Positions 5,491 to 59,972 of a DNA stretch of 59,972 nt are shown here, one piece after another (position 1 is the stretch's first letter; each line of letters starts with the position of its first letter). A program made the position numbers and the translations under genes. The DNA lies in the NCBI GenBank assembly GCA_018829335.1, contig JAHJUD010000009.1, positions 1 to 59,972 of the forward strand, read 5' to 3'. The notes under the pieces are model-generated. The model made no database searches, had not been told where the DNA came from, and saw nothing but the letters and a program-made list of their open reading frames with translations. The stretch comes from Candidatus Micrarchaeota archaeon (GTDB taxonomy: Archaea > Iainarchaeota > Iainarchaeia > Iainarchaeales > 1-14-0-10-31-34).

Positions 5491-5587
5491 GGCATCAAAA
5501 CATAACTTTTAATAAATAAGAATACTATTATGATTACTTAAATAAAAAGGTTTTGCCAATTTCATTTTATTTCTTAAAGGGCTTATA

Positions 5588-7115: not shown

Positions 7116-7121
7116 CTTTTA

Positions 7122-7757: not shown

Positions 7758-7791
7758 GAAAAAATAAGGAAGCCAAATAATTAAAGAAGAT

Positions 7792-13148: not shown

Positions 13149-13149
13149 T

Positions 13150-14935: not shown

Positions 14936-14944
14936 TTAACACAA

Positions 14945-15841: not shown

Positions 15842-15905
15842 TAAATTAATTATTCTAAAAAGTCAATAAAAGCTTTTCTTGCTTGGGAAACAGAAGTTTT
15901 CCAGG

Positions 15906-23239: not shown

Positions 23240-26200
23240 TTTTAAAACAAATTTTTTTTTGCTGCCTTTTTTATTCTTTGTGCTTTTTTCTTTTTCTTCT
23301 TTTTCAAGATTCTCTTTTTTGTTGTTTTCAAATTCATCTCTTTCATTATCCAGCCTGGCTGACTTTTTTTTCTGGATTTTTGACTCAAAGTATTTCTGGA
23401 AAGAATAAACAAAAAACAATTCAAGCGCAATCAAAACAATAAAACCTAAAATTCCAAAAAACTTGTTTGAAAACAATGCCAGGAAAAAGAAAATCACTGC
23501 AATAATAATGCTTAACCCTGTTCCATAATTAGGTTTTACAACAAAAAAGTCAGATAAGTCAAAGCAATGCCTTTTGCATTTAGAGAAAGCATAAGATGAA
23601 GCAATAAAAGCCAAAAGCAGTAAAACAGGAATAAGAAAAGGGTTTGTCTGTTCAGGAGAGCCAAAAAAGAATTCAGCTGCAAGGAAAACAAAAGAATAAG
23701 CTTCTTCTTCCTCTGAAATAACCTTAAAAGAAGTCTTAAATTCAGCTGACTTAACTAAAGCCAGAACCTGATAGGTTCCTAATTCATCTGTAATAAAGCT
23801 TACACTTCCTTCAGGCCCTGTAAAAAAATCAAATGATTTTCCGCTGGGAGAAACAACAGTTATTTTTTCTTCTGTTATTGGCCCAAAAACAGAATGATAA
23901 AGAACAATTTTCTGCAGCTGGCCTAAAACAAGCTTTTCCCGCATTACATCTAAAACAAAATCTTCTTTTACTGTATCCCCTGAAACCAAAACAAAGTTTC
24001 TTGCAGGGCATCCTTCATCTATTGTTCCATCCAAATCATCATCAACTGCATTATAACATTTTTCAACCAAATAAGAATAAAGATTAACTGAAACAATATT
24101 GTTTGATTCATCATCTTCAAAAACTTTTTTTGTTGAATCAAGTTCAGCAAAAACACTGCCGTTAATTTCTTCAGAGAAATCAACTGAAAGCAAAACTTTT
24201 TCTTTTTTTCCGCTTGCAAGAGAAAAACCTGAAACTGAATTAATAACCATTTTCTTGTTTTCTTTGGTGTAATAATACAACTCAAGAGAAAAATCCTCTG
24301 CTTCAAGCAGGCCCTGGTTTTCCATTTCCAGTTCCAAAAGAACCAAATTGCCTAACCTCACTGAAAGGTCATTGACCGGCTTAAAATAATTGACTCTTAA
24401 GTCTGCCTGACTTGAAACAACAAAAAATATTTTCCTGCAGTTTTCAGAGTCAATTTCAGAAGAATTCTCTGAAAAAGAAATGCAGACATCATAACCTTTA
24501 TTGCCTGTCAAGCCTGCAGGAAGAACATAATCATATTCAACTGTAACAGAAGAAAGATCATCAAAATTAAGCTTTGAGTCAGCAAAAAAAACCTGTTTAA
24601 TTCCGGCAAATTCTTTAAGGTTCTGCAATTCTATTCCTGCTTTAAGATTTGAAACCTTAACTGAATCAACTATCTGGTTTGAAAGTGAATCCCTTAAAAC
24701 AACAAAAAAGTCAGATGAATCCACAAAACCATTGTTTTTTATTTTTGCGGTCAGCTTTACTTTAGCTCCAGGGGAAACAATTTCCCTGTCAGCATCAAGC
24801 TCGCTTATTTTCAGGTTAACAGAATCACTGTATTTTAGCAGAATTGATTCTTTTTGGTTGTTTGATTCATCTGATTCAGCAAAAGAATTCTGAAAATCAA
24901 TTAAAGCAATTACTTTGTTTTCAGTCCCAGAAAAAACAGCTGAAGGAATACTAAAAGAAAAAGTTTTTGTTTCTCCTGGTTCAATTGAAGTTATCTTATC
25001 AGAAAAAATAATGTTTTTTTCTTTTGCTTCATTCAAAAAGAAATCAATTCCAACCTGAGGCGAAACAAATTTTCCGTTATTTTTTATTTTAACAACAGCA
25101 TTTGATTCTGTTTCCCCTGCAAGCAGGTTTTCTTCAAAATAAAAATCTTCTAAAACCAAATCAAATCCTTCATCAATTATTCCGTTGTCATTGTCGTCAA
25201 TTCCATTGTCTTCTTCTTTTGAGGCAATCTTTACTGCAAAAGAACTAAAATCATTTGATACATCTGCGTCATTGTCTTTGCCATAACAGTCTGAAGTAAA
25301 AGTCAACTCAAATTCTCCTGAATCAAAACCCAAAAGCTTTGGATTAAAATAAAATCCTGAATCATCTTTTCCTGAAAGCTTTCTTGAATAAAGAGATGAA
25401 AGGTAATTTTCAGGAAGCTTTTTTGCTTTTCCTTCAACAACCCAAAAATAAGAAAAAGAGCTTCCAAAAGAGTCAACGAACTCCAAAAAAGAAAGCTGTT
25501 TTTTTTCAGCTGAATTTCCTGCTTTAGCTGAAAACACCAAAAACAATTCATTGTTTTTCTTTTTGTCTGAAACATACACGCAAAATTCCTTGTCGTTAAA
25601 TTCCTTAAAATAGTCTTTTTCTTCTCCAAAAAGTACCTTAACATCAAAAGGCACAACAAAAAAATCCGGAACCTGGGATAAATCAAACCTGAATTTTTTT
25701 ATTCCTGAAACAGGGTCAGCCAAAGGAAACATTTTTTCCCCTGAAGAAAGAACAATAAAATCCCCTAATTCAACTGAATAATCTGCCTTGCATTCTTCAT
25801 CTATTATTCCATCCAAATCATCATCAATGTTGTTAAAGCATTTTTCAGCCAAAACAGTATTCCCTGAAACCACATTAAAAGAAAAAGTACTTGAATTATT
25901 GCTTTTAGAGGCTTCACCCAAAGAATTAACTTTGTCAATTGACACAGAAAGTTCTGTTTTTCCGCTAAAATCAGAAGAAGAAACAAAAAAAGAAATGGTT
26001 TTTTCTTTTCCTGCATTCAAGCCATAGACAATCCTTGACTCAATTGAATTTCCTTTTCCATCAAGAACTGAAACCAGAAAAGAATCTAAAACATCAGTTA
26101 ATCCGTTGTTTTTTATTTTTACAACCAAAGGAAGCAAATCTCCTTGATTAACTGAATTCAAATGATCAACTGAAACAACAAACAAGTCAGGAAATTCTGA

Positions 26201-26989
26201 AGAAGCATTTAAAACAATTTTTTTCTGGAAACTGTTATTGTTTTCATTTTGTTCTATAACATCAAAACCTGAATCAACGACTGCTTCAAGAATATATTCT
26301 CCTGGAGCAAGAAAAGAAGAGTCAAAAACAAATTCAACTTTATCAGAGGCACCTTCTTTTAATTGCTGCAGTTGTTTTTCGCCAATAAAGGTTTTGCCTG
26401 AAGCAGAATTAAAATACAATGAAACATTAAAAAAAGAAGAATCCTTTAATCCGGAATTTGAAACAAAAACTTTTACGGGAATTTTCTGGCCTACAGAGCT
26501 TTCAGGAAAATCAACTGAAGAAACAGAAAGCTCTGGATTATTTGAATTAATTTTTATTGCGCCGACTTTTGTCTGAAAAACAGCAGACTTTCCTAAAGAA
26601 TCAAACAAAATTACATGCAAAGTATAAGAGCCGTCTTTTGCATCAGAAGAAATCCCGCAGACATCCTCAATTAAATCAGAACCTGAAGTTCTTTTGCAGG
26701 AATTGCCTGAATAAGTGTTTGTTACAGTCCAGCCCATTCCCTTGACTATTCTTGAACAGACATAATCAGACAAGTCATTGTCTTTGTATATATGGATTGC
26801 ATAAGCTGAAGGGCAAGAATATTTGTAATTGAATTCCACTGGAATTTTTTCTCCAGGAGAAAAAACATTATCATAAACAGAAAGAATTCTTAAAGGCGCA
26901 TTAGGGTTTGATTCAGGAACAGAAACTAACGCAAAAGCTGAATTAAATAAAAGCAGAAAACACAAAACCAACAAACCATAAAATTTCAT
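23234..26989 (-). CDS. Giant surface protein with CARDB-like beta-sandwich repeats and Ca-binding-like DDDLDG motifs
   Basis: 1251 aa. Signal peptide MKFYGLLVLCFLLLFNSAFA. At least 5 repeats carry the N(N/S/Q)G...(F)xVxLY signature and end in E(S/Q)(D/N)E(S/N)NN. Also CFNNIDDDLDGIIDEEC, DDNDNGIIDEG and CYNAVDDDLDGTIDEGC. C-terminal TM helices plus a K/E tail. Confidence 0.8.
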   Translation of the reverse strand: MKFYGLLVLCFLLLFNSAFALVSVPESNPNAPLRILSVYDNVFSPGEKIPVEFNYKYSCPSAYAIHIYKDNDLSDYVCSRIVKGMGWTVTNTYSGNSCKRTSGSDLIEDVCGISSDAKDGSYTLHVILFDSLGKSAVFQTKVGAIKINSNNPELSVSSVDFPESSVGQKIPVKVFVSNSGLKDSSFFNVSLYFNSASGKTFIGEKQLQQLKEGASDKVEFVFDSSFLAPGEYILEAVVDSGFDVIEQNENNNSFQKKIVLNASSEFPDLFVVSVDHLNSVNQGDLLPLVVKIKNNGLTDVLDSFLVSVLDGKGNSIESRIVYGLNAGKEKTISFFVSSSDFSGKTELSVSIDKVNSLGEASKSNNSSTFSFNVVSGNTVLAEKCFNNIDDDLDGIIDEECKADYSVELGDFIVLSSGEKMFPLADPVSGIKKFRFDLSQVPDFFVVPFDVKVLFGEEKDYFKEFNDKEFCVYVSDKKKNNELFLVFSAKAGNSAEKKQLSFLEFVDSFGSSFSYFWVVEGKAKKLPENYLSSLYSRKLSGKDDSGFYFNPKLLGFDSGEFELTFTSDCYGKDNDADVSNDFSSFAVKIASKEEDNGIDDNDNGIIDEGFDLVLEDFYFEENLLAGETESNAVVKIKNNGKFVSPQVGIDFFLNEAKEKNIIFSDKITSIEPGETKTFSFSIPSAVFSGTENKVIALIDFQNSFAESDESNNQKESILLKYSDSVNLKISELDADREIVSPGAKVKLTAKIKNNGFVDSSDFFVVLRDSLSNQIVDSVKVSNLKAGIELQNLKEFAGIKQVFFADSKLNFDDLSSVTVEYDYVLPAGLTGNKGYDVCISFSENSSEIDSENCRKIFFVVSSQADLRVNYFKPVNDLSVRLGNLVLLELEMENQGLLEAEDFSLELYYYTKENKKMVINSVSGFSLASGKKEKVLLSVDFSEEINGSVFAELDSTKKVFEDDESNNIVSVNLYSYLVEKCYNAVDDDLDGTIDEGCPARNFVLVSGDTVKEDFVLDVMREKLVLGQLQKIVLYHSVFGPITEEKITVVSPSGKSFDFFTGPEGSVSFITDELGTYQVLALVKSAEFKTSFKVISEEEEAYSFVFLAAEFFFGSPEQTNPFLIPVLLLLAFIASSYAFSKCKRHCFDLSDFFVVKPNYGTGLSIIIAVIFFFLALFSNKFFGILGFIVLIALELFFVYSFQKYFESKIQKKKSARLDNERDEFENNKKENLEKEEKEKSTKNKKGSKKKFVLKL

Positions 26990-27028
26990 TTAATCACTTA
27001 ATATTTGTTTTATCCTTTAATAAACTTT

Positions 27029-28243
27029 TCATTTAATCTCCTGTTTTTGCCTTAATTCAAAGATATTTTGTTCAATCTGGTCAAGCTGTCTTTTATAGTC
27101 ATCAAACTGTTCATTGTAAACTTCCCTTGAAATCAACTGCTGATTAAAATAATCTTCTTGAAGCTTTTTCATTAAAATCAAAAGCTTTTTCCTTTTTCTT
27201 GTAAGCAAAGTTCTTTTAACAAAAATTCTTCCTTCCTTGAATGAAACAAAAAAAACATAAACAATAAATAAAACAGGAAAAACATAAACTATTGCATTTT
27301 GCGCAATATAAAAATATAAGTAACCTTTTGGCTCAAAATCAAAGGAACTGCTTCCTGTGTTGCCATAATTGTCTTCTGCAAAAACATTCACATAAAATAT
27401 TTCTGCATTAAGGTCTGTTGTATTGATTACAACAGAATAAAGCCCTGAAGAAATTTCCTCTAATTCAGTTCTCTGGTTATTGAATTCAGCCCAGACTTTA
27501 ATGCCTGAAGCAGAAAAATCATCACTATAAACAGGCCTGATTTTTAAATCCAAAGGCTTGCCGAAATTAAATTCTTTTATTGCAGGCGAAACAAGCTGTA
27601 ACTGCAATGGAACTTTTCTTATTTCAAAAGAAACAATATTGCTTCCGCCGTCTTTTTCTTCTCCAGGAGAAAAAGCAGTAACCATCAAAGCCCATTGTTT
27701 TACTTCAGCATCAATAGGGATTTCAACTTCCTCAAAAAAATAAACTCCGTTTGCTTCAAAATAAAGCCTTTTCTTATTTCCCTGAAAATCCCAAAAATAC
27801 ACTTCAGCGTTATCAACATCTTTTCCTGCATCAGTTATTTTTATTCTTACATCAAATTTTTGCGTCCTAAAATAAGAAGAACTTGAAGGATTAATGAAAT
27901 CAACCCTTAAGTATTCGCATTCAACAGAAGAATTCACATAAAACTCAAGCTCTTTTTCTGATTCATCATCTGAAACAAAAACTTTCCATTGGCCTGCAGG
28001 GTCAATGCAAGGAATAAAATAATTAAAAGAAAAAAAACCGTTTACATCAGGCTGAACAATTGAATTCAAAACTTTTTTTTCTCCGGGGGCTGCAATAAAA
28101 GCCAAATTGACTTTTCCTGAAGAAAAACCATTAAAGTCAATGAACTCTCCTTTAGAATAAGTTCCTTTAACTGAACCCACTTCCAGAGAAAAAGCAAAAG
28201 AAAGCAGTAAAACAAAGAAAACCAAAAACAATAATTTTTTCAT
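27029..28243 (-). CDS. Secreted single-pass membrane protein with Ig-like domains and a conserved cytoplasmic tail
   Basis: I prefer the ATG at 28243 (MKKLLFLVFFVLLLSFAFS signal peptide), 4 nt after the upstream stop. TM helix near aa 325-342, then a RKRKK..LQEDYFN..S.E.Y tail. Confidence 0.7.
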   Translation of the reverse strand: MKKLLFLVFFVLLLSFAFSLEVGSVKGTYSKGEFIDFNGFSSGKVNLAFIAAPGEKKVLNSIVQPDVNGFFSFNYFIPCIDPAGQWKVFVSDDESEKELEFYVNSSVECEYLRVDFINPSSSSYFRTQKFDVRIKITDAGKDVDNAEVYFWDFQGNKKRLYFEANGVYFFEEVEIPIDAEVKQWALMVTAFSPGEEKDGGSNIVSFEIRKVPLQLQLVSPAIKEFNFGKPLDLKIRPVYSDDFSASGIKVWAEFNNQRTELEEISSGLYSVVINTTDLNAEIFYVNVFAEDNYGNTGSSSFDFEPKGYLYFYIAQNAIVYVFPVLFIVYVFFVSFKEGRIFVKRTLLTRKRKKLLILMKKLQEDYFNQQLISREVYNEQFDDYKRQLDQIEQNIFELRQKQEIK

Positions 28244-28247
28244 TTCA

Positions 28248-30347
28248 TCAGCTCCACAAATCATCTTCTCTTCCTTTTTTTTTCTCTGTTCTTTTTTTTG
28301 GTTTAGTTTCTTTTTCCGGCAACTTTTTTCCAGAAAGCTCTTTTTCAGGGAATTCTGTTTTCTCTTCTTTTTTTTTCACTGAAAAAAGCCCTGGCATTTC
28401 CTCTTCTTCGAAAGAATTTTTTTCTCCTGAAATCTTAAACATTGAAGCAGTTTCAACATCATCAAAAGAAACCTTTTTTTCTCCAAAAACCTCTTCTTCG
28501 TCTACTTCAATTCCTTTTTCTTCTGAAGCCTTTTTGAATGCATCAATCGCAGAATCAATGTCTCTTAATTCAGAACTATACTTTGAAAGCAAAGAATAAT
28601 ATTGTTCACTGCTCATTGCACCTAAATTAAAGTATTTTTCCTGCAAATCTCCTTTAAGCCTTTCAAGCTCTTTTTTTCTTTTTGCCAAAGAATTAAGCGT
28701 ATTCAGCCTTTTCCTTACAACAATAATCACAATAATAATAAAAATAAAGGCAAAAATCACTGAAAGAAAAAGCAAAGGGTTTTCCCTGAAATAATACTCT
28801 AAAGTAAGCTCTCCTGTAACTTCAAACAATCTATCAAAATAAACTTTGTTTCCAAAAGCGTCTGTTGCCTGAACCTCTAAAAGAAGCTGTCTTGCCTCAG
28901 ACAAATCCTCGTTTTTCACAACATAAGAAAAATAAAATACTCCAGGTTCTTTTTCATTGCTTGAAATTTCTTTATTGTTTATTTTAACTGAAATCTTGGG
29001 CTTGCTTAAAGCATTTCCATTTTCATAATTCAGTTTAAGCCTGAAATTCAGTTCTTCTCCTAAAGCAGCAGTCTGTTTTTGCGGTTCAACCAAAACAGCA
29101 TTAATTTTTGCTTCATCTACAGTAATTCCCATTTCAGTTGAGCCGCCATATTTCACTGAACCAATTGTTTTTTTTGCATTAACAAGAATTTTTTGTTCTC
29201 CTAAAGGGAAATCAAAAGGCAGAGAATAAGACAAAGAATATTTTCCTTTAGAAACCATTTTCAAAGCAACTTCTTTTCCATCAGGAAACAATGCATTGAC
29301 TTCAGCGTCTTCAACCGGAATTTCATCAAAAAGCACGTCAAACAAAATCCTTATTTCTGAACCCCTGCTGTAAAGCTTTTGATAAGAATCAGGCAAAACC
29401 ACATCCATGAAAATTGTTCCTGCTTCCCTGCTTACAACAACAGTTTTTTCAAGCAATCCCTCGTTTTCAAACCCGTCTTTTCCTGAAACAATAAAATGCC
29501 AGTTTCCTTCAGGATAAATTAAGCTGGTTCTCTGATCCAAAGAAAAAAATCCGTTCTTGTCTGATTTAGTTTTTGATTCAAAAACAGCCTGGTTTTTGTT
29601 TAAAGCAGTAATCGTAATAACAGTTGAAACAGGATTTCCCCTTTTAAGCAAGAATCCCTCAAAATGAATTATGTCGCCTAATACAAAATTGTTTTTGTCA
29701 ATTAAAAAATCAAGTGAAAGCTCAGGGTTTATTTCAACAATAAAATTGTGTGTTTTGCTTACACCCAACTTTTCAGCTGAAATCTCTGAAGCATAATTGT
29801 TTTTAGAGGTAAGTTCAGAGACAAGAAAACTTACAGCATAAATTCCGTCATTTGCTTTTTCGTCTGAATGATTGCCATCATCATACATTGGAATATCTCC
29901 TGCAAAAGTTTTGACTCTTACATTAGCCTGTTTTGCAATAACCCCGTCAGCTTTTATTTTAGCCTTAAAAGTTATTTGATCCCCTCTCAAAAAAACGTTT
30001 TCATCTAAAGGCGAAAGCAATTCAATGGTTAATTCAGTTGGCGCACAATCTGCATCACAATTAGAAAAATCTTCTCCTGACTCACAAATATGGTTTCCGC
30101 AACAATAATACTTTATCTGTGCCCTGCACAAGCCAGTCAGACAGCTGTATTCCTGGCATAAAGCATTTGGCACATTGCCAGAGCATTCACCGCAATCAGA
30201 AGCACAAGTGCATTTGTCTTCTCCTGAATCACAAATGCCGTCATTGTCGCATAATGCAAAATTCAGTTGATTCCATTGTTCAGCCAAAGAAAAAGGCACA
30301 AAACACACAAAAAAAATTAACAAAACCAAAAACAATTTTTTAATCAT
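28248..30347 (-). CDS. Secreted single-pass membrane protein: Cys-rich N-domain, Ig-like repeats, conserved cytoplasmic tail, K/E-rich C-terminus
   Basis: 699 aa. Signal peptide. Duplicated GIC(D/E)SGED..C..DC motif (aa 33-101). TM at aa 524-544, then KRKKELERLKGDLQEKYFN..SSEQY. Confidence 0.75.
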   Translation of the reverse strand: MIKKLFLVLLIFFVCFVPFSLAEQWNQLNFALCDNDGICDSGEDKCTCASDCGECSGNVPNALCQEYSCLTGLCRAQIKYYCCGNHICESGEDFSNCDADCAPTELTIELLSPLDENVFLRGDQITFKAKIKADGVIAKQANVRVKTFAGDIPMYDDGNHSDEKANDGIYAVSFLVSELTSKNNYASEISAEKLGVSKTHNFIVEINPELSLDFLIDKNNFVLGDIIHFEGFLLKRGNPVSTVITITALNKNQAVFESKTKSDKNGFFSLDQRTSLIYPEGNWHFIVSGKDGFENEGLLEKTVVVSREAGTIFMDVVLPDSYQKLYSRGSEIRILFDVLFDEIPVEDAEVNALFPDGKEVALKMVSKGKYSLSYSLPFDFPLGEQKILVNAKKTIGSVKYGGSTEMGITVDEAKINAVLVEPQKQTAALGEELNFRLKLNYENGNALSKPKISVKINNKEISSNEKEPGVFYFSYVVKNEDLSEARQLLLEVQATDAFGNKVYFDRLFEVTGELTLEYYFRENPLLFLSVIFAFIFIIIVIIVVRKRLNTLNSLAKRKKELERLKGDLQEKYFNLGAMSSEQYYSLLSKYSSELRDIDSAIDAFKKASEEKGIEVDEEEVFGEKKVSFDDVETASMFKISGEKNSFEEEEMPGLFSVKKKEEKTEFPEKELSGKKLPEKETKPKKRTEKKKGREDDLWS

Positions 30348-30353
30348 GCAATT

Positions 30354-31205
30354 TCACCACAAAATATCGTCTTGTTTCTTCTGAATCTTGATTTTTTCAA
30401 GCTTTATTCCTTTAGAGGTAATTGAATAAGGAACTAAATTCTTTGAATGGTCACAGCATCTCATTTTCAGTATTTCCATTGCCCTTTTCCTTGAATTGCC
30501 TATTTTTACATTATAAAGCACTATTACCCCGTCTCCAAGAAATTCTTCTATTCCTGTCCTGGAATAAATTCCAGGGTCTTGTTCTGTTTCGGAAATAATG
30601 TAATTCACTGAATCATACTGGTTTAATGAATCAAACATATGCTTGATATAATAACGGTAATTTTCTGAATTTCCCATAAAAGCAACATTTAATGCAGACA
30701 AAGAATCAACTGCAATCTTGTCTGGAACAAAAGGCAGTTCTAATTGTTCAACCTGAACCAATAAAGCCCTTCTCTGTTTCATTAAAGAAGCTTCAACGCT
30801 TCTTGCAATCTTAAAAGGATTAATTTTCAGCATTGCAAAGCTTTCTTCTTTTTCAAATCTTTCTAAATCCCAGCCATAATTGTTTTTCATATGCCTTTTC
30901 AGCTTTTCAGCTGACTCTTCAAACAAAATATAAACAGCTTTTTCGCCCTGCAATAAGCCATGATAAATTGACTGCAGGCAGAAAGTGCTTTTACCTGTTC
31001 CGCATCCGCCTGAAACCAGAATAGTAGAGCCTCTTTCAATTCCATGGGCTGCCAGATTCTCATCAAAAGAGTCAACCCTTACAGGCAGAAACTCCATTTT
31101 TTCTTTTTTCCTTAATTTCCTGTCCTTCATATCCTCTAATTCTTCTTCTTCAATGCTTCCAGGCTCAATCTCTTCTTTTCCTGCAAACTTAATTCCAAAC
31201 GGCAT
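30354..31205 (-). CDS. KaiC-like / RecA-superfamily ATPase (single domain)
   Basis: 283 aa. Walker A ILVSGGCGTGKST, FCLQSIYHGLLQGEKAVYILFEES, and Walker B-like KIAVDSLSAL. Acidic N-terminal extension of about 45 aa. First gene of the operon. Confidence 0.8.
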   Translation of the reverse strand: MPFGIKFAGKEEIEPGSIEEEELEDMKDRKLRKKEKMEFLPVRVDSFDENLAAHGIERGSTILVSGGCGTGKSTFCLQSIYHGLLQGEKAVYILFEESAEKLKRHMKNNYGWDLERFEKEESFAMLKINPFKIARSVEASLMKQRRALLVQVEQLELPFVPDKIAVDSLSALNVAFMGNSENYRYYIKHMFDSLNQYDSVNYIISETEQDPGIYSRTGIEEFLGDGVIVLYNVKIGNSRKRAMEILKMRCCDHSKNLVPYSITSKGIKLEKIKIQKKQDDILW

Positions 31206-44106: not shown

Positions 44107-46629
44107 TCAAATTCCTGCTTCTTTTTTCAAAACTTCAGCTTTATCAGTTTTTTCCCAGGTAAAATCTGGATCATCTCTTCCAAAATGCCCGTAAGCTGCA
44201 GTCTTCTTATAAATCGGCCTCTTCAAATTAAGGTGCTTTAAGATTCCAGCAGGCTTTAAAGGAAAAATTTTCCTGACCAATTCACAGATTTTTTCCTCTG
44301 AAATTTTCCCTGAACCAAAAGTATCAACATGCAGGGAAACAGGATCAGGATGGCCAATAGCATAAGCTAGTTGTATTTCACATTTATCTGCAAGACCTGA
44401 AGCAACAATATTTTTTGCAATATATCTTGCCATATAAGCAGCGCTCCTGTCAACTTTGCTTGGGTCTTTACCTGAATTATGACAAACAAAACCGTTGGCA
44501 GTAAAAGTGTGGCTTTTTGGGACAAGCAAATCATATACATGAGTTAAAGAGTTTTCTATTTCTTCAACCCCAGAGTAATAATGATTCATTTTGCATAAAA
44601 GTTCCAGTTCCTTAAACTCTTTTTCTTCTCCCAACTTATTTCTGTAGATTTCTAAAAATTCTCTTAATTTTTGACAAGTTAACTCTTTTGTTGTTTTTCC
44701 TTTTTTGCTTCTTGTGAATCTTCCGATTTTTGCTTTATCTAACTGATGATCCTCTAATGAAAGCTTTTGCCACAAACTTTTGATTCTCTTTTGTTGGCGG
44801 GGTACAACAAAAAGATTTCTTTTTTCTTTTAACTTCAGGTTGTCTAAAATTTTTTGCTTTCTTGGCAGTCCAAAACCTATTTCTTCCTTAAAAATTCTGA
44901 CACTTTCAGCGCCTTTAATTCTTAATGCGTAAATAATTCTTCTTGTAGTTGCCTCTCTGTCTTTGATTCTGAACACGGTTCCTATTTTATCAGTTTTTTG
45001 TATTCTTGAAATTATGCCAAAACTCAAAAGCAGTTGTTGAATTTGCTGAATCAAAGTGTAAGATGATGAAACCAATTTAATATCAGGAAAATTTTTATTT
45101 CTTCCATGAATTCGTATCCCTCCATCAGTGTCAAATAAACCTCTAATAAATGCTGCTACAACTTTCTTTGGTGCCTTAAATATTTTTTCTGGAACACTTT
45201 TCTCCCAAGATCTCCTGTAATCAAGTCCAATATGTTTCAGATAAGCTCTTAACTCAACTCCTGCAACATAAGCCCAATGCCCAAAAATCTTCCATTTGTT
45301 TCCAAAAAGTTTTTTATACAAATTCCCTAAATTTTCCTTTTGTTCTTTTTCACAAACACAAATGGCTATTGCGCCTTCCATCATACAATTACCATCGCCT
45401 ATAAGTGACCCAAGCAGATAAGCATAATCTTCTGTCAGTTCTTTTGGAAAGGAAAACTTATTTTTCCTTGCTTCGGCAGTGCTCTCTTTATAGGTATAAG
45501 TAAAATCACTCAAATCAACTCTTTCTCCAAACAGCCTATTGCTTTTGTGAATAGCCACAGAATCTCCTTTCTTAAGCTGATCCATTCTTTTCCAAATATA
45601 ATTTCCATTATTGTCAATAACCCTGACAGCCTGATTATTTGAGCCCTCCAAAGAATAACCATCTTCTGACCTAACAACAAGAGTTTCCATTACGCCATTG
45701 TCATACCATTCTTTTGCAGGTTCAGGATGAACATCTGTTTTAACTAGCAAGTGGTTATCCACGGTTTCTTTCATTTCTTTAATTAGCTCTAGGCCTTTGG
45801 CAGTATTAACCAAAGAGTTTCCTTCAACACAAAAAGCGCCTCCTCCATGCCTGCCTATTCCTCCATAAGTGTCAACAATAATTTTTCTTCCTGTTAAGCC
45901 TGCATCAGCATAAGGGCCTCCTCGAACAAAAGCTCCTGTTGGATTAACAAAAAATTTTGTTTCAGAGTCAATCCATTCTTTGCAGACAGGCTTAATTATT
46001 TTTTCAATTATTTTTTGCTGTAATTCCTTATAAGGAATGTTTTCATCATGCTGGGTTGAAACAACAACTGCATCAACCCTTAAAGGCTTTCCATTCTTGT
46101 CGTATTCAACTGTAACCTGGCTTTTACCGTCAGGCCTTAAAAAAGTTAATTCATTGCTTTTCCTTACTTCAGCTAATTTCATGCATAATTTATGTGCAAG
46201 ACTAATAGTCAAAGGCATTAACTCTGGAGTTTCATTGCAGGCAAAACCAAACATCATTCCCTGGTCGCCGGCACCCTGCTCTTTTGTCTGGCTTGTGGTT
46301 TCATTTACGCCTAAAGCAATGTCAGGGCTTTGCTCGGTAATCTGGGTCCACACAGAACAGGTTTCATACTCTATTCCGTATTCAGATTTAGTGTAACCTA
46401 TTTCTTTTATTGTTTCTCTTACCACAGAAGGAATATCAACATAAGCTTTAGTTGTAATCTCGCCAAAAACATTTACTCCGCCGTTTTTGGCTGAAGTTTC
46501 ACAGGCAACCCTTGCATCAGGATCCTGCTCAAGAATTGCATCAAGAATTGCATCAGAGATTTTATCAGACATCTTGTCAGGGTGCCCTTCAGTAACAGAC
46601 TCAGAAGTCAATAAAATTTTTTCAGCCAT
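44107..46629 (-). CDS. metK: S-adenosylmethionine synthetase (bacterial/eukaryotic MetK type) precursor containing an intein
   Basis: ATG at 46629 ([19 protein letters not shown]). [15 protein letters not shown], and GGGAF|intein|[14 protein letters not shown]. The exteins sum to 388 aa. The 112-aa upstream extension of the track ORF is rejected. Confidence 0.9.
44476..45831 (-). mobile_element. Intein (452 aa) with LAGLIDADG homing-endonuclease domain
   Basis: Starts with Cys (tgt at 45829-45831; CVEGNSLV). LAGLIDADG motifs [11 protein letters not shown] and [11 protein letters not shown]. Ends [21 protein letters not shown] (aat at 44476-44478), followed by Ser+1. Confidence 0.9.
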
Positions 46630-46735
46630 AAAAATTCCCCCATAAAGAAACAATAAAAATAATGAAAGAAGAATACATTTAAAAGAATAATTTAGAATAA
46701 AATTATTCAAATAAGAATAAAGAGAAGTGATTGCC

Positions 46736-47293
46736 ATGCTTCCGGACTTAAGCGAGATAAAAATAAAAAGAAAAGAGCTGAATTTAACACAAGAAGAACT
46801 TTCAGAATTAAGCAAAGTCCCGCAGTCAATTATAGCAAAAATTGAAAACCATAAAATTTCCCCTTCATATGAAAGCGCAAAAAAAATTTTTGATGTTTTA
46901 GGCAAAGAAAACAAAAAAAAGCAGACTGCAAGAAATGTGATGAGCAAAAACCTTATTTCAATCAAAGAAAACGAAAAAGCAGAAAAAGCAATTTATCTGA
47001 TGAACAGGCATGGAATAAGCCAGCTGCCTGTAATGAAAAAAGACATTCCAATCGGCACAATAACAGAAAAAACCCTTGTAGAAAAAATCAGTTCAGGTAA
47101 AGTAAGGAGTTCAGACAAGGCTTCAGACTTAATGCAGGAAAGCCTGCCAATAATTGAATCAAACTCTGAAATTGAAGCAGTTTCTGCCATGCTGAAATAT
47201 TATTCTGCTGTATTAGTAAAAGAAAAAGACAAAATAATCGGAATAATTACAAGAACAGATGTAATCAGGAAATCCATTAACAGGAAAAACTGA
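46736..47293 (+). CDS. Transcriptional regulator: XRE-type HTH fused to a CBS-domain pair
   Basis: ATG at 46736 (the track start at 46727 is GTG). [23 protein letters not shown] is the HTH. It is followed by two CBS-like repeats ([17 protein letters not shown]; [15 protein letters not shown]). Confidence 0.8.
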
Positions 47294-54055: not shown

Positions 54056-54844
54056 TTATTCAATTTCACTTAAATAATTTGCAATAAAAGGGCTTTCAAT
54101 CAATAAAGCTTTCTCGTTTTCATCTTTTTTTTCATTCAAAAAAAGCAGTACTTTTTCTTTGTCAAACAATATAAACCTTGCATTAGTTTTTGATTTAACT
54201 GCATTAAAAGCCTTTAATTCCCTTGAAAAACTGTTATTTGAACTATTTAAAGCAAATTTAATTTGAACTCCTCTGGCCTTTAAAGCCTTTAATTTTGAAT
54301 TAAAGAAGCCTATTTTCTTTAAGGCATTGGCTTCAGAAGTAGAAATTATAACGCTTGCCTTTGCATTTTTTAACGACAAGGCTATTATGTTGTTTATCTG
54401 GCTTGATGAAACAATACTCCACACCCCAGAAAAGCTTTCTTTTGAAGGCTTTTCATTAAAGTTTTTTTTGAGGTCTTCTTTAAGGGATTTCATTTCCTCT
54501 AATTCTAATTCAAATAATTCCCTTTTTTGCCTTTCAAAATTCATTAAAGCTGTTTCTGGCTCTATTGCCTTAAAAGAAACAGGCCTTCCCAAAGAAACCA
54601 TTACAAAACCTTTTTTTTCCAAAGACATTAAAACATCATAAACTCTTGCCCTTGGAATGCCTGCTTTCCTGCTTACATCTGATGCAGTCAAAGTCTTATT
54701 TGAACTCAAAGAAGAATACACTTTTGATTCATATTCATTTAATCCAATTCTCTTCAATAAAGCAGTCAAGTCATCCAAAGAATTCACCAAAAAAAAATGA
54801 TTAGATGAATAATGCTGTTTTCCTTTAAATTCTTTTCTGTTCAA
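54056..54844 (-). CDS. TrmB-family transcriptional regulator
   Basis: LKRIGLNEYESKVYSSLSSNKTLTASDVSRKAGIPRARVYDVLMSLEKKGFV is the TrmB wHTH, plus a C-terminal domain. The only in-frame start is the TTG at 54844, 4 nt after the upstream stop. Confidence 0.75.
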   Translation of the reverse strand: MNRKEFKGKQHYSSNHFFLVNSLDDLTALLKRIGLNEYESKVYSSLSSNKTLTASDVSRKAGIPRARVYDVLMSLEKKGFVMVSLGRPVSFKAIEPETALMNFERQKRELFELELEEMKSLKEDLKKNFNEKPSKESFSGVWSIVSSSQINNIIALSLKNAKASVIISTSEANALKKIGFFNSKLKALKARGVQIKFALNSSNNSFSRELKAFNAVKSKTNARFILFDKEKVLLFLNEKKDENEKALLIESPFIANYLSEIE

Positions 54845-54848
54845 AAGC

Positions 54849-57800
54849 TTACTCTGTTTTAGCTATTCCTGAAACAAACTTGTAGTCAACACAAGCAAGG
54901 CATTCAACAATAGTATTGCATGTACTGCATGCAGCCGGAGTTTCAATTGGGGGAACTACTCCAGTTGAAACAATTTTTGTCGGCTTGCAGTAATCTTTTC
55001 CTAATTCTGCTTTTTTTCCATAGTTTTCTGCAAACACCCTATACCATGCAATAACTTTTGGCACATAAGTTTCTCTTGTTGTAGAACAGCCTATTGAATC
55101 ACATGAAACCTGCGAACAATTATATCTTGCAATCTTTAATGCAGTCTTCCATGTTGCCTGTACTTCACCTGAACCACTTAAAACCGTACTAAGGCTTTCC
55201 TGGCTGCATGAAAGATTATTAACCCATTTTTCAAGAGAACCCAAAAAATTACCTGAATTAAAATATCTTGTTCCAGCCTGAATATTTTTATTTACATCCT
55301 TCCATGTTTCTGTTGTACTCCATCCTGAACCAAAAATATCAGTCCAAGCAGTAAGATTTGATTCATGAATCTGCATTAAGCCATAAGAGCTTTTTTCTCC
55401 AGAACTATCCTTGCCTATTGCATTAGCCTTAAAAGAGCTTTCAGCCTGAATTATTGCTCGCGTAAGGTTTGGATCCATTGAAAAAATTTCAGAATATTTT
55501 TCAATTTCTGCCTCAAATTTTTCTGCATTATCCATTGCAATAATGCAGTCCTGGCTTGGCGGCTGATCGCTAATCCTTACAGTTGTAGTTTGCTGTCCTT
55601 GTGATTCAGGGGTAAGAGTAATAGTTACTTCTATTTCCCGGCCTTCAATTATTAAAGTTCCGCCGCTTCCCTGCTGGGGTGCTGCATTAAAATTTCCTTG
55701 GGGAGTTTCAAGACTGAAGTTATTTAAGTAAACGTTTCCTTCATCGCATTCAAGGGTTCCTTCCCCTGAAGGAGTGCAGGTTATACCTTGTCCTTCAAGC
55801 TGTCCTTCTATTTCATTTAATGATTCTTGAATAAATTCATCAAGGTAAAGAACTGGTTCAGGCAGATTCAAATTTAATTTAACCACTGCTTTTTTTGATT
55901 CAGACTTAATTGTAATTGATGCAGCCTCATAATTTGGTTCAATAAAAGTTGCGCCATGCTTTTCTGTTCCATTAACATAATATAAATCGCATTTGTTGTC
56001 TGCATCCTTGTCCTGGCAGGCATAAAATTCTAATGAAGTTTCATCCCAGTTATTTAAGACAATTTTTTGTCCTGAATAAGAGTCAATAGAAAAATATTTT
56101 CCGTTCTTGAATTGTGCTGTGAAAGCATCAAATTCTACAATAGAATTTGAAACACTTGCCGAAGGGTAATCTGATGAATTGTTTGCTGTTGTTGAAGGCT
56201 GTTTTACTTTTCCTTTTTCTCCTACAGCAAAAAACATTTTTTCATTACTGTAATCCTGTAATTCTATTTCAATTTGTTTTGTGCCTTTTGCAAGATAAAC
56301 AATATGAGGCACTTTGTTTTCAAGGCAGACAAAATTGTTTTTGTTGTTTGGAGTGCAGGTTAAACCATTCACTGACTTAACCTGAAGGTTAGTTAAGTTT
56401 CCTGCAGGCTGTGCAGTTAATTTAACTGTTGCAGGCGCTGTTTTTGAAACCTGAATTAATTTTTTGTCTGGAATAATCAAAAAACCTGGTGTGCCTGCAA
56501 GAGGAATAAAAATTGTACCGTCAGCTATCTGATAAGAGCCTTCAGGACAGGAAATCTGTTCTTTTGCCGGTTCTGTTACCTTGCAAGAAGAAGACAAACT
56601 TGACTTTAATTCATCTATTATCTGCTGGTTTAATTCTTGTTTTTGTGCCTGAGTTAAAGGATAATTTCCTAAATCAATTTGCAATTGAATTATTCCTGAC
56701 TCAACAGAAATTGAAGCCAGTGAAACAGCCTGCTGTGCTTTTCCTGCTATTGGCCCTGAAATCAAAGCAGACTTAGTATTGGCAAAAGAATATCCTGTTA
56801 AATCAAGTTCAGTCATTGAATCAGTTATAGGCTGTCCTGAAGAAGGAATTCTTACTGCTTCCTTATAATAATTAAAAGAGCGTGTGTTATCTGATTCTTC
56901 AACAACAAAATTATATTCTGTGCCTTTAGACAATAATATAATAAGCCTGTCTTTTGTTAATGAATCAGGAGAGAATAAATATGCTTTGTTTATATACCAT
57001 CTTTCATCCTTGTGACTAGAATCCAAAGAATAAACATAAACTCCTTGCCAGTTATTTTTTTCCAGCAAAGCATAATTGTCTTTTCCAATGATTATACTGA
57101 GTTTAAAATCTTCTTCTGGAACAGGACAGGAAGAAACATCTGGGTTTATAATAGTAACTGAATCAGGAATAATTGCAGAAAACACGTCTGGTGCAGTCTG
57201 AGTTAAAGGAATTAGTTTTTGATTAGTTGTACAACTGTCAGGAACACTAATTCCAAGTTTTCCTTTATATTCTTCAGCAGTTCCATAAATTTTCAAAGTT
57301 GCAGTAGCTAAATTTGTTTCAATGTTACTAACCCAATTGTTGAATAATCCTTTGCCTGTATGGCCCAGTATTCCAACATAATCTGGTTCTTCTCCTGAAG
57401 AATCCTTTAATTCAGGTGCAATTCCTCCCTGATTTAATGCATCAACCACTGCATGAGATGACTGAACCTGAACAACAAATGTATCAGGATTAACAGCAAT
57501 CTGGTTAATTAAATCAACTACAGTGTTTCCGTTAACTGAAACTGTAGTGGAATCAATTATTTGCCCTGAAGTTGAATCAGTTACATTCAAAACATATTCT
57601 CCTGTAGGAACTGAATCAGCATAAGCAACTGCAGTGGTTCCTGCAGGAGCAAGATTCAACTGAATGCTGTCGCCTGAAGAAGGCTTCAAAGAAAAATCAA
57701 ATTTGTCAGCTAAAGAAGGCTGAGTGAATACGCTGTCAACATAAGCTTTTACATTAAATTCTTCTGGTTTAGGAGCAAGCTGAAGAAAATTGTTTTGTGT

Positions 57801-59468
57801 TTTGATTTCTTTTAATGCACTAAGTTTTCCTTCATTCAAAGAAAAAGACACAGAAAATTCATCGGTTCCAATTCCATATGAATCCTTGATTTCAGTTATA
57901 TCAGAATTAACTACCCCTAATTTTTCATGCAAAAAAATAAATCCCTGAACAGACTGACTGAAATCATTTGGCTTTGGCAAAAGCATTGTTTCAGGAACAA
58001 GTTCTTGATATCCATACATAGTATCTAAATAAAAGTAAATTGGAAGCCCTTCAAGCTTATGCACGCCATTTAATCCTTTCTTCATTTTAGAAACAACATA
58101 TTTTCCTGAAGAATCTTTTACTGCTTCAGGAAGCTGGCTTTCTTCAATTAAATTTATTTTAATTGAAGCAGTTTTTGCGGCAGAATCCAGAGAAACGAAA
58201 ACAGTTTTAAAATAGGTTCCACCAAAATTATTTGTTTCGCATATACGCTTTTGCATTAATCCAAAAGAAACTTCCATATTTTTGCAGTTATCAAATTGAA
58301 CAAATGATTTAAGCCCTTCAATTGTTGCAAAAGAAGGAATAAATCCATATGAAATAACAACTTCATTTTGACTTATGTCTTCAATTGCAATCCAGTAAGG
58401 AGAATACTCGTTTTGGTTTGCAATAATCCTGTAAGCTTTTCCTGCAGAAACATTATTTAACACAGTCATGTTTTCTATTGTATCAAAATAATATTGTTCT
58501 GAAGAATTTGACTGAGAAGAAACCTGGCTTAAAGCAGAACCAGCATTCCAGGATAAAATTGAAGGAAGCGCTGAAGCAGCATAAGCTGAATCAGGTTCAG
58601 CCAAGCCTGTGTTTGGGTCAACAATCCATTGGGTTGAATCATCTACTACATTAGATTCTCTAGGTAATTCTTCAATCAAGCCTGCATATAATAAAAAAAA
58701 GTGGTCTGGCAACATCAAAAAAATTTTATATCCTACGTCAACAACATATTTTCTATCCATTTTTGGAATTACAGCGGCATCCGCGCTTTCTGGAAGAAAA
58801 CTTAATTTAACATCTATAGCTATATCATTTTCTGGCTCAAATTGTGGAAAAACCCAAATAGGATAACCTTCAAGCTTGTATACAATGTTTTGATTCTCTG
58901 AATAATCAATCCAACCATAGCCTTTCTCGCTTTGGTTATATGAAACTTCATCAAAAGTTAAACCCAAATCAGGAAAACCATTATCAGCGTATTTTATTCT
59001 TATTTCAACACAAGAAGGACCCGCAGAACAATTCGCAGCATCGGCTACCTCAATTAATTTAACTTTAAATTGATTTCCGTAAAAGTCTTTTGAATTTGGT
59101 GTTGTAGATTGACCAGAAGGAAGAACAGTAGTGTAACGTCTTGAGAATTCAAGCTCATATTCTTCATAAGAATCATTACAAATTGTCTTATTATTTGCAG
59201 TTTCACAATATGCAATAGACTCCAATAAAGGCAATTCACCTATTGAAAATTTGGCGGTCTTATTTGCAGCATCTATTTCTGAAATATAAATCCAGAAAGG
59301 AGAAAACTCGTTTTCGTTTTTGATAATTCTTAAAGCTAAACCTGCTTCAGTATTTATAACAGTTTCTTCTGCAACAGGATCCCAATAAACATTAAAACCA
59401 TTTGCAGAAACACTTAAAGAAAACAAAACCAAAAAAACTAATAACAAAACAATTTTTTTCATTAACAT
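54849..59468 (-). CDS. Giant secreted protein (1539 aa) with duplicated N-terminal module and a C-terminal lytic transglycosylase (SLT) domain plus Cys-rich tail
   Basis: Signal peptide MKKIVLLLVFLVLFSLSVSA. Tandem module with RII.N.NE(F/Y)SP(F/Y)WI. SLT motifs AIIQAESSF, YGLMQI, NIQAGTRYF and ARYNCS near the C-terminus. Confidence 0.8.
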   Translation of the reverse strand: MLMKKIVLLLVFLVLFSLSVSANGFNVYWDPVAEETVINTEAGLALRIIKNENEFSPFWIYISEIDAANKTAKFSIGELPLLESIAYCETANNKTICNDSYEEYELEFSRRYTTVLPSGQSTTPNSKDFYGNQFKVKLIEVADAANCSAGPSCVEIRIKYADNGFPDLGLTFDEVSYNQSEKGYGWIDYSENQNIVYKLEGYPIWVFPQFEPENDIAIDVKLSFLPESADAAVIPKMDRKYVVDVGYKIFLMLPDHFFLLYAGLIEELPRESNVVDDSTQWIVDPNTGLAEPDSAYAASALPSILSWNAGSALSQVSSQSNSSEQYYFDTIENMTVLNNVSAGKAYRIIANQNEYSPYWIAIEDISQNEVVISYGFIPSFATIEGLKSFVQFDNCKNMEVSFGLMQKRICETNNFGGTYFKTVFVSLDSAAKTASIKINLIEESQLPEAVKDSSGKYVVSKMKKGLNGVHKLEGLPIYFYLDTMYGYQELVPETMLLPKPNDFSQSVQGFIFLHEKLGVVNSDITEIKDSYGIGTDEFSVSFSLNEGKLSALKEIKTQNNFLQLAPKPEEFNVKAYVDSVFTQPSLADKFDFSLKPSSGDSIQLNLAPAGTTAVAYADSVPTGEYVLNVTDSTSGQIIDSTTVSVNGNTVVDLINQIAVNPDTFVVQVQSSHAVVDALNQGGIAPELKDSSGEEPDYVGILGHTGKGLFNNWVSNIETNLATATLKIYGTAEEYKGKLGISVPDSCTTNQKLIPLTQTAPDVFSAIIPDSVTIINPDVSSCPVPEEDFKLSIIIGKDNYALLEKNNWQGVYVYSLDSSHKDERWYINKAYLFSPDSLTKDRLIILLSKGTEYNFVVEESDNTRSFNYYKEAVRIPSSGQPITDSMTELDLTGYSFANTKSALISGPIAGKAQQAVSLASISVESGIIQLQIDLGNYPLTQAQKQELNQQIIDELKSSLSSSCKVTEPAKEQISCPEGSYQIADGTIFIPLAGTPGFLIIPDKKLIQVSKTAPATVKLTAQPAGNLTNLQVKSVNGLTCTPNNKNNFVCLENKVPHIVYLAKGTKQIEIELQDYSNEKMFFAVGEKGKVKQPSTTANNSSDYPSASVSNSIVEFDAFTAQFKNGKYFSIDSYSGQKIVLNNWDETSLEFYACQDKDADNKCDLYYVNGTEKHGATFIEPNYEAASITIKSESKKAVVKLNLNLPEPVLYLDEFIQESLNEIEGQLEGQGITCTPSGEGTLECDEGNVYLNNFSLETPQGNFNAAPQQGSGGTLIIEGREIEVTITLTPESQGQQTTTVRISDQPPSQDCIIAMDNAEKFEAEIEKYSEIFSMDPNLTRAIIQAESSFKANAIGKDSSGEKSSYGLMQIHESNLTAWTDIFGSGWSTTETWKDVNKNIQAGTRYFNSGNFLGSLEKWVNNLSCSQESLSTVLSGSGEVQATWKTALKIARYNCSQVSCDSIGCSTTRETYVPKVIAWYRVFAENYGKKAELGKDYCKPTKIVSTGVVPPIETPAACSTCNTIVECLACVDYKFVSGIAKTE
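55032..55475 (-). other. SLT / goose-lysozyme-like lytic transglycosylase domain (aa 1332-1479 of the giant protein)
   Basis: DPNLTRAIIQAESSFKANAIGKDSSGEKSSYGLMQIHESN...NKNIQAGTRYF...ARYNCS...YVPKVIAWYRVF. The catalytic Glu-Ser and GLMQ motifs are in canonical order and spacing. Confidence 0.75.
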
Positions 59469-59972
59469 AACCTCTCCAGCTCTTGTAAAGCTAATTCATT
59501 TTCTAATTTTGTCTGGGAAAAATTTGATGCATCAACAATAAATGAAGCTAAATTTGCCTGCTCTTCAAATCCTGAATGCAGTTCATTGAAAGCATAAACT
59601 AATTCATTGACCTGAGCCATTTTATTGTTTAATTCAATTGTTTTTTCTCCCACAAACATTAAATCAGTTTTATTTAAGCATAAATTGTCTCCGGTTATTT
59701 CCCCTAAAGAATCATTTTTTTCCTTTAATTTTAAAGCTAAATCTAATTCGTCAACTAAAAGCAAATGAATTTCAGTGAAATCTTTTAATGCTTCAACATC
59801 CTCTGTTTTCTTTAAGTCATTCAAAGAATTTTTGAATTCAATCAAGTCATCGCTTAAAGCATCTAAATCGCTTGAAGAAAACTTTAATTCAGAGTCACTG
59901 CTTGAAAGGTAAGCTGAATTCACTTTGTTTTTTTCCCATAATCCATTAATTTGTTTTACTCCTTCAGAGAAA
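59462..59972 (-). CDS. Acidic coiled-coil protein, 5' end probably outside the window
   Basis: The frame is open to the window edge; the track start at 59923 is GTG. Heptad-like, D/E/L/K-rich sequence. Its TAA stop overlaps the start (ATGTTAATG) of the giant protein gene. Confidence 0.5.
   Translation of the reverse strand, partial: FSEGVKQINGLWEKNKVNSAYLSSSDSELKFSSSDLDALSDDLIEFKNSLNDLKKTEDVEALKDFTEIHLLLVDELDLALKLKEKNDSLGEITGDNLCLNKTDLMFVGEKTIELNNKMAQVNELVYAFNELHSGFEEQANLASFIVDASNFSQTKLENELALQELERLC

Follow-up and report, generated by a model that had tools for sequence, protein, structure and literature searches.

The window analysed here is the whole of a stretch of 59,972 nucleotides of contig JAHJUD010000009.1 (assembly GCA_018829335.1, deposited as Candidatus Micrarchaeota archaeon), and close to its right-hand end, on the reverse strand, lies a gene for a giant secreted protein (the giant) that ends in a GH23/SLT domain. 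The gene is preceded by a partner gene, of which only the 3' part falls inside the window, and followed by a gene for a TrmB-family regulator and by three convergent genes for envelope proteins. The longest frame of the giant, 54849..59468 on the reverse strand, comprises 1539 codons, from whose first Met residues are numbered throughout, and its GC content of 0.34 is about that of the remainder of the window. The features of the locus are collected in Table 1.

Table 1. Positions in the window of the giant, its domains and the neighbouring genes.
Feature	Position	Strand	Basis
Giant secreted protein, coding sequence from the probable start Met3, 1537 aa + stop	54849..59462	(-)	conserved MKK start
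Sec-type signal peptide, MKKIVLLLVFLVLFSLSVSA / NG	59403..59462	(-)	sequence inspection; sole hydrophobic segment of the giant
First copy of the beta-rich YRII-NENE(F/Y)SPYW ... KLEG(L/Y)P domain, aa 28-207	58848..59387	(-)	internal duplication
Second copy of the YRII/SPYW domain, aa 327-480	58029..58490	(-)	aligns with N-terminal domain of relatives
CQDK domain, aa ~1025-1190, NLQ(V/I)KSVNG ... FFSVGEKGKV ... W.G..F(Y)(A/V)CQDK.GDGKCD ... EPNYEAASI	55899..56396	(-)	invariant alignment columns
GH23/SLT domain (lytic transglycosylase or goose-lysozyme-like), aa ~1314-1479	55032..55529	(-)	Pfam, PDB phmmer/profile matches, AlphaFold2 (AF2), Foldseek
Codon of Glu1343, predicted catalytic acid (AIIQAE-S)	55440..55442	(-)	aligned with Glu of MltC and MltE
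C-terminal tail, aa 1480-1539, ENYG..ELG.DYCKPT, linker, C..C.....CLAC.DYKFVSG	54852..55031	(-)	invariant columns
Partner gene, 3' part, cut by window end	59462..59972	(-)	frame open to window edge
TrmB-family regulator, winged helix-turn-helix and weak TrmB sugar-binding match	54056..54844	(-)	Pfam
Convergent envelope trio, 267, 600 and 832 aa	48782..53884	(+)	signal peptide and C-terminal transmembrane (TM) anchor each, Ig-like repeats

The C-terminal domain of the giant is a GH23/SLT domain with apparently intact catalytic motifs, as judged from sequence comparison and structure prediction. Pfam SLT (PF01464) recognised aa 1322-1405 with a score of 44.7 bits (E = 1.2e-11; gathering score 21.3), far beyond chance, and the same profile matched eight of the nine full-length relatives (best E = 2e-32). 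An earlier reading of this DNA, made without database searches and referred to here as the sequence-only reading, had listed four ordered SLT motifs, and all were found where it had placed them, namely AIIQAESSF at aa 1338-1346 (nt 55431-55457), YGLMQI at 1362-1367, NIQAGTRYF at 1395-1403 and ARYNCS at 1447-1452, the last being slightly off the family consensus A.YN.G, with C-S for x-G. A Cys-containing insertion of ~40 residues separates NIQAGTRYF from the AYN motif, and it is because of this insertion that Pfam coverage is limited to profile positions 3-78. The domain had been bounded at aa 1332-1479, of which the end agrees with the profile-based limits (aa ~1314-1479), while the start lies earlier. 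When sequences of the PDB were searched by phmmer with the C-terminal region, MltC, MltE/EmtA and Slt70 were matched, and AIIQAE1343S aligned on the catalytic E-S of MltC (IMQIESSF) and of MltE (IIAIESGG); the context of the catalytic Glu, on which the sequence-only reading had staked its assignment, thus aligns with known SLT enzymes. Glu1343 is retained in 11 of 13 aligned modules and in 15 of the 17 family members that bear an SLT domain.

Structure prediction led to the same family. The AF2 model of the last 240 aa reached a predicted local distance difference test score (pLDDT) of 79.8 and a predicted template modelling score (pTM) of 0.75, and in Foldseek searches of the PDB its top matches were exclusively GH23 proteins, namely g-type lysozymes, MltE, Slt, MltC and MltF (probability ~1, E ~4e-3, target-normalised template modelling score (TMt) <=0.59), although these E-values and scores are modest and the alignments behind the AF2 models are shallow, at 9-13 sequences (13 for the C-terminal model). 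Against a viral structure library, too, the model matched GH23 proteins only. The family profile aligned over the whole GH23 domain of cod g-type lysozyme (3gxk), including AYN.G and the C-terminal Tyr helix, where TYVPKVIAWYRVF of the giant aligns with the lysozyme segment DYSNDVVARAQWY. The profile and structure searches proposed with the SLT assignment therefore returned GH23 in both cases. Lytic-transglycosylase and lysozyme chemistry would both fit the domain by its sequence: g-type lysozymes carry an Asp after GLMQV, a position at which the family consensus has no acid and the window reads GLMQIH, and because this Asp is not conserved the choice between hydrolase and lytic transglycosylase is not readable from the sequence.

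The sequence-only reading had also taken the giant to be secreted, and this was borne out by its Sec-type signal peptide and by a hydropathy scan that found no further TM segment; all signal-peptide and TM assignments given here come from inspection and such a scan. The scan likewise disclosed no membrane anchor, PGF-CTERM motif or lipobox in the giant. The N-terminal MKK and the hydrophobic stretch are kept in all full-length relatives, and the cysteines along the body of the protein occur in close pairs, as expected of an extracellular protein.

The frame of 1539 codons that had been taken as the protein is present, as is the junction GAGAGGTTATGTTAATG at which the stop of the upstream gene had been said to overlap the start of the giant, but the true start is probably Met3 (nt 59462), giving a protein of 1537 aa and a 1-nt TAATG overlap instead of one of 7 nt. 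This start is preferred because of the conserved partner/giant junctions of relatives, in which the MKK Met stands directly at, or overlaps, the TAA of the partner (TGTTAATG, TGTTAAATG and TGTTAAAATG), and because of a conserved Shine-Dalgarno-like (SD-like) GAGAGG ~8 nt 5' of the Met3 ATG. The extra upstream ATG of 'ATGTTAATG' arises solely because the window has TTA preceding the conserved TGT-TAA. An SD-like motif was seen in just 9 of the 33 long open reading frames (ORFs) of the window, mostly in operon-internal genes. The C-terminal codons of the partner, E-L-E-R-L/V-C, themselves include the GAGAGG of the giant (59462-59485, and the junctions of the related loci L002-L004 and L013), so that the conservation of this end of the partner protein may in part be a constraint of translation initiation. 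An exact sequence look-up of the giant, from Met1 or from Met3, gave no matching record.

An exhaustive phmmer search of 1.84 billion representative sequences with aa 340-1539 returned 27 hits, comprising a 99%-identical strain fragment (P0001), seven full-length relatives (1148-1356 aa, 36-44% identical to the giant and matched through the C-terminus), several shorter forms and a few small SLT proteins; it found no relatives of the body beyond a rare family of ~20 members. A scan of JGI metagenomes added four further loci only. Word-indexed homologue searching gave no match to the C-terminal 239 aa and, for the family profile, just P0015 and one bacterial MltC-like protein; in a cluster look-up one family member bore the name 'soluble lytic murein transglycosylase-like protein'. 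Among 20 distinct proteins the SLT motifs are intact in 15, degenerate in two (P0010 and P0011, with E changed to D in RALIEVDG and the GLMQ segment deleted) and undetected in three (P0009, P0016 and L016), the absence in L016 being uncertain in a 244-aa frame on a 1765-nt contig. Some members depart in architecture: P0002 (JGI, 1356 aa) has two SLT domains, one N-terminal after the signal peptide and one C-terminal, and P0014/L011 starts with an SLT domain directly after the partner gene (L011 3395-3892).

Identity between relatives is 25-30% in the body, 40-63% in the C-terminal module and 50-68% in the flanking genes. From this difference between body and module the giant is, as far as sequence identities can tell, a surface protein that evolves fast but whose enzymatic end is constrained, and the C-terminal module appears to be under purifying selection. 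The strain variant P0001 (863-aa fragment) shows 10 differences, all within aa 687-766 (57171-57410) and none in the next 773 aa, a patch that is either a local hypervariable region or an artefact of mixed strains where the P0001 contig ends.

The tail that follows the SLT domain was recognised in all 20 distinct family proteins, including the members without an SLT domain, through DYCKPT ... C..C.....CLAC.DYKFVSG, with C215, C218, C224, C227, D229 and F232 (module numbering) invariant. It had been described as ~60 aa with eight Cys; the last 60 aa in fact hold five, and eight Cys are reached only over aa 1451-1526. Across the family eight Cys are nearly or fully invariant, at 1308, 1421, 1456, 1494, 1514, 1517, 1523 and 1526. 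Upstream of the SLT domain the body is an orphan in Pfam, and at E <= 1 Pfam gave nothing usable for the tail, the CQDK domain, the partner or the short members. The CQDK domain is its best-conserved part; P0009 has two copies of it, and the short members P0010, P0011 and P0016 have it as well. Two segments of the giant, aa 28-207 and aa 327-480, are an internal duplication (E = 3e-10), of which most relatives lack the first copy; the invariants of this domain are R, I, S, Y and W of YRII..SPYW together with LEG.P. The AF2 model of the body (aa 274-1310; pLDDT 57.8, pTM 0.29) predicts a beta-rich structure at low confidence, and Foldseek returned for it only generic tandem immunoglobulin/fibronectin type III-like matches with TM-scores <= 0.1. 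Because of this low confidence and these generic matches no function is readable from the body model.

The gene upstream, which had been described as a coiled-coil ORF, does adjoin the start of the giant, but it is the window-cut end of a membrane-anchored protein of ~200 aa. Its homologues have an N-terminal TM helix (seen in the L003 homologues) and a helical ectodomain and end in ...ELER(L/V)C, and the part within the window shares 57-67% identity with the genes that immediately precede the giant in L002-L006. The ELER(L/V)C-stop abuts the ATG of the giant in the window and in L002, L003, L004, L006 and L013, that is, in every locus with a visible junction. Downstream, a TrmB-family ORF begins at a TTG 4 nt past the stop of the giant, just as the sequence-only reading had it, and its family was upheld by a PF01978 match of 80.7 bits, with PF11495 borderline at 22.7 bits against a cut-off of 22.2; the NCBIfam TrmB and TrmBL1 equivalogs scored far below their cut-offs on it. 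When relatives were surveyed for the same coiled-coil/giant/TrmB triad, the partner, giant and TrmB genes proved syntenic, with TrmB immediately 3' of the giant in four of the five full loci and in the corresponding position in L004, L005, L006, L008 and L010, but in L003 an FTR1 permease gene is interposed between giant and TrmB.

This order extends further, through the convergent 832-, 600- and 267-aa envelope proteins and a 188-aa HTH-CBS protein to MetK. The envelope trio, with weak Ig-like Pfam matches, keeps the same order at 32-63% identity in L003-L006 and L008, the C-terminus of its 600-aa protein consists of a PGF-like motif, a TM helix and basic residues, in this order, and by sequence all three are probably core envelope or S-layer-type proteins; we take them as context of the locus and make no claim that they act with the giant. 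Relatives show the locus to be modular, two of them having duplicated [~200-aa TM-helical][secreted protein] cassettes. In L003 (4915-7141) a paralogous pair lies just upstream, consisting of a 201-aa TM-helical protein ending ...GVC and a 339-aa secreted protein starting MLMKK, and in L009 (4791-12836) [~200 aa][large] pairs are repeated. In L010 (2656-9557) the SLT-and-tail protein is no longer than 518 aa, two separate genes (729 and 965 aa) stand before it and downstream synteny is retained, an arrangement that suggests gene fission or fusion in the history of the family.

A scan for the C-terminal module in one genome per species (GTDB r232) gave seven loci, all in metagenome-assembled genomes (MAGs) labelled Candidatus Diapherotrites, Candidatus Iainarchaeum or 'archaeon'; by these MAG labels the carriers belong to Archaea, Nanobdellati, Iainarchaeota. 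The neighbouring genes in the window are 50-84% identical, in the same order, to genes of Iainarchaeota/Diapherotrites MAGs. Rfam and tRNA scans of the window found no rRNA or tRNA genes. By these sequence comparisons the contig is archaeal (DPANN Iainarchaeota) and the gene of the giant chromosomal and vertically inherited at a fixed locus. A bacterial origin of the contig, which the sequence-only reading had itself named as fatal to its proposal, is rejected by the synteny with named archaeal MAGs. Neither PHROGs nor PADLOC connected the locus with viruses or with defence.

The explanation that we favour, to which we would give about an even chance, is that of an exported, envelope-associated giant that is held by its partner and whose GH23 domain cuts bacterial peptidoglycan outside the archaeal cell. 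After cleavage of the signal peptide, the ~1300-residue beta-rich body with its paired Cys would act as a stalk or binding region, followed in order by a catalytically competent GH23 muramidase of the SLT type and by the disulfide-rich tail. The giant would be co-produced with the membrane-anchored helical partner through the stop/start overlap and the shared SD-like site, and the partner would probably hold or assemble it at the cell surface, perhaps, as we can only conjecture, via the conserved tail. Glu1343 would then cut the beta-1,4 bonds between N-acetylmuramic acid (MurNAc) and N-acetylglucosamine (GlcNAc) in bacterial peptidoglycan met extracellularly, the archaeon having no murein of its own; we infer murein as the substrate from the motif set and from the lack of murein synthesis in the host itself. 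The purpose may lie in breaching or gripping the walls of host or prey bacteria, or in harvesting wall material, and the co-oriented TrmB-type sugar-sensing regulator may tune expression. An action against bacterial walls is plausible.

Several points weigh against this explanation. GH23 enzymes are also able to cut chitin-like glycans, and no LysM, SH3 or PG_binding domain was found in any family member by Pfam at E <= 0.05, which gave just SLT-type and isolated sub-threshold matches. The AF2 models of tail and body, the parts that would tether and extend the enzyme, are of low confidence. The members with a degenerate or undetected SLT domain all keep the tail and the locus, and because they do, catalysis is not essential to the core role of the family, the SLT domain being dispensable in some orthologues. 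No bacterial host is known for Iainarchaeota, which are argued to be free-living in what PMC10936187 says of them. Furthermore, the gene stands among core envelope genes and is stably inherited and non-mobile, unlike the known archaeal weapons of the peptidoglycan-hydrolase type, whose distribution is patchy and which often reside on plasmids (PMC12352652).

The alternative that survives best, which we regard as unlikely but worth serious attention, is that the GH23 domain acts on a glycan other than murein, either the surface polysaccharide or glycosylated envelope of the archaeon itself, remodelled in growth or division, or chitin-like or other beta-1,4-linked N-acetylhexosamine polymers of a host. 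Such a role would suit a gene that belongs to a conserved envelope locus adjoining core surface proteins and that has a TrmB-type sugar regulator as its neighbour, and the nearest structural matches include g-type lysozymes with N-acetylglucosamine (NAG) oligomers and MltE with chitopentaose. A cell-surface polysaccharide is also implied by a large cluster at 3269-18133 of the window, probably a locus for cell-surface polysaccharide or glycan synthesis, which holds GT1, GT2 and GT4 glycosyltransferases, methyltransferases, an epimerase and an ABC-2 type (Wzm/Wzt-like) exporter at 5588-7115. The motif set of the giant (ES, GLMQ, AYN.G and the Tyr helix), however, is that of the murein-specific family-1 lytic transglycosylases, and no archaeal polymer is known to be cleaved by GH23. 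Pseudomurein, for its part, is beta-1,3-linked and found in methanogens, not in DPANN archaea.

The giant could also be envisaged as a freely released, soluble exoenzyme that digests the peptidoglycan of dead bacteria (necromass) or lyses distant competitors, in a nutritional or bacteriocin-like role in which the partner would have no part in anchoring. This we consider decidedly unlikely. That the signal peptide is the sole hydrophobic segment, with no membrane anchor, PGF-CTERM motif or lipobox, would agree with free release, Iainarchaeota are considered possibly free-living heterotrophs, and secreted archaeal peptidoglycan hydrolases do kill bacteria. A 1300-residue stalk would, however, be costly for a diffusible enzyme, the strict coupling to a membrane-anchored partner and the universal tail suggest assembly at the surface, and no genes for recycling or uptake of peptidoglycan were seen in the window.

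Improbable, in our view, is a family that is primarily a structural or adhesive component of the envelope, made of stalk, CQDK domain and tail, in which the SLT domain is accessory or lectin-like and its catalysis dispensable. It is the tail and the CQDK domain that are universal, while the SLT domain is degenerate in P0010 and P0011 and undetected in P0009, P0016 and the short L016 frame; the body evolves fast, as exposed surface proteins do, and the strain variant P0001 differs in a single 80-residue patch. Yet every catalytic motif is kept in 15 of the 20 members, SLT domain and tail together are the best-conserved part of the protein, and in P0002 the SLT domain has been duplicated. Hardly credible, finally, is the remnant of a virus or mobile element (a virion lysin, a tape-measure-like SLT protein or a secretion transglycosylase of the VirB1/IagB type), since against the large phage structural proteins with SLT/GEWL domains among the structural matches, a weak NCBIfam IagB match (22 bits against a cut-off of 208) and a weak match to PHROG 19349 (E = 2.7e-4, a family of unknown function) stand the lack of any relative in 2.9 M viral contigs, neighbours that are envelope and housekeeping genes with no phage or secretion-system genes nearby, a GC content like that of the remainder of the window, and a syntenic chromosomal position fixed across divergent MAGs, which effectively refutes it.

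The proposal of the sequence-only reading that such a protein acts on bacterial cell walls is already a published hypothesis for giants of Woesearchaeota and Pacearchaeota, whose SLT proteins (fam00969) were proposed to bind or degrade bacterial walls (Castelle 2021, PMC8204110). SLT proteins had earlier been noted in three DPANN genomes, as that paper reports in citing Rinke 2013 and Castelle 2015, a case for predatory Woesearchaeota has been built on GH23 proteins (Vigneron et al. 2022, PMC9723730), and DPANN archaea of oxygen-deficient zones, as well as Pacearchaeota, have drawn like remarks. The fam00969 proteins and the giant have in common a DPANN host without murein, a very large protein with a signal peptide, a single SLT/GH23 domain and a like proposed role. 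In contrast, fam00969, which is known to us here by its description, is described as specific to Woesearchaeota and Pacearchaeota, whereas the carriers of the giant are Iainarchaeota and its family has a Cys tail, a CQDK domain, a membrane-anchored partner and a fixed envelope locus of its own. The new elements are the lineage, Iainarchaeota, and, within it, a differing body with a CQDK domain and a universal Cys tail, a membrane partner coupled to the giant, and an envelope locus that is fixed.

With the family-1 enzymes MltC, MltE/EmtA and Slt70 the giant shares the Glu-Ser, GLMQ and AYN-type motifs, the C-terminal Tyr helix and the fold, but it is only ~18-20% identical to them and differs in its ~40-residue Cys insertion, its 1300-aa orphan body, its Cys tail and its murein-free host. 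Goose-type lysozymes (goose egg-white lysozyme (GEWL) and those of cod and salmon) are its best Foldseek matches (3gxk and 1gbs, TMt ~0.57), 3gxk also giving the full-length profile alignment, and they too are disulfide-stabilised secreted enzymes; the missing acid after GLMQ sets the giant family apart from them. The killing of bacteria by secreted modular archaeal peptidoglycan hydrolases has been demonstrated in experiments (Strock et al. 2025, PMC12352652), and these hydrolases resemble the giant in being archaeal and secreted, in carrying a peptidoglycan-cleaving domain and in the archaeon-bacterium interaction inferred from them. Those enzymes, however, are small, modular (e.g. M23 with PG_binding_1), patchy and often plasmid-borne, in contrast to a giant that is large, chromosomally fixed and devoid of any known binding domain, and that would have escaped their screen. 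Phage virion proteins with SLT/GEWL domains (tape measure proteins, internal virion proteins, PRD1 P7) likewise carry GH23 inside a very large protein and offer an analogy for local penetration of a wall, but the giant is cellular, with a signal peptide, a syntenic locus and neither viral context nor viral relatives.

Murein-cleaving domains in organisms without murein are among the rare hints of archaeon-bacterium contact that can be read from a genome, and such contact is largely open for DPANN archaea, almost all of which are uncultured. The present family extends the theme of a giant exported SLT protein to a third DPANN phylum, the Iainarchaeota, on a differing protein body, and because the SLT domain sits on an unrelated body this points to independent recruitment of one bacterial domain, with fam00969 set apart by its description. 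The advance is incremental, the concept having been published already and activity and host being matters of inference here; it does supply parts that can be tested, namely a compact catalytic module of ~240 aa whose Glu is defined, besides the conserved Cys tail and the membrane partner. A bolder thought, and a long shot, is that the partner (...ELER(L/V)C) and the tail (C..C.....CLAC.DYKF) form an undescribed archaeal anchor-and-cargo cassette for surface display, bearing a muramidase on a long stalk in most members of the clade; these Iainarchaeota, although supposed to be free-living, would then live on bacteria as obligate epibionts or predators, and the fast-evolving stalk would set their host range.

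Two further parts of the window were recorded. An intein with a LAGLIDADG homing endonuclease interrupts a bacterial-type S-adenosylmethionine synthetase, MetK (44107-46965, reverse strand). The MetK match in L004, L005 and L006 stops at ~aa 367-378 and resumes at aa 831, so that the intein is apparently missing there, and L008 has it. The 952-aa MetK ORF is over-extended at its 5' end, where it overlaps the conserved 188-aa HTH-CBS gene (46727-47293, forward strand). At 23234-31205 on the reverse strand lies a second cluster of surface proteins, consisting of a 1251-aa CARDB-repeat protein, a 699-aa protein with a 'choice-of-anchor X' motif and an orphan protein of 411 aa, together with a KaiC/ArlH-like ATPase.

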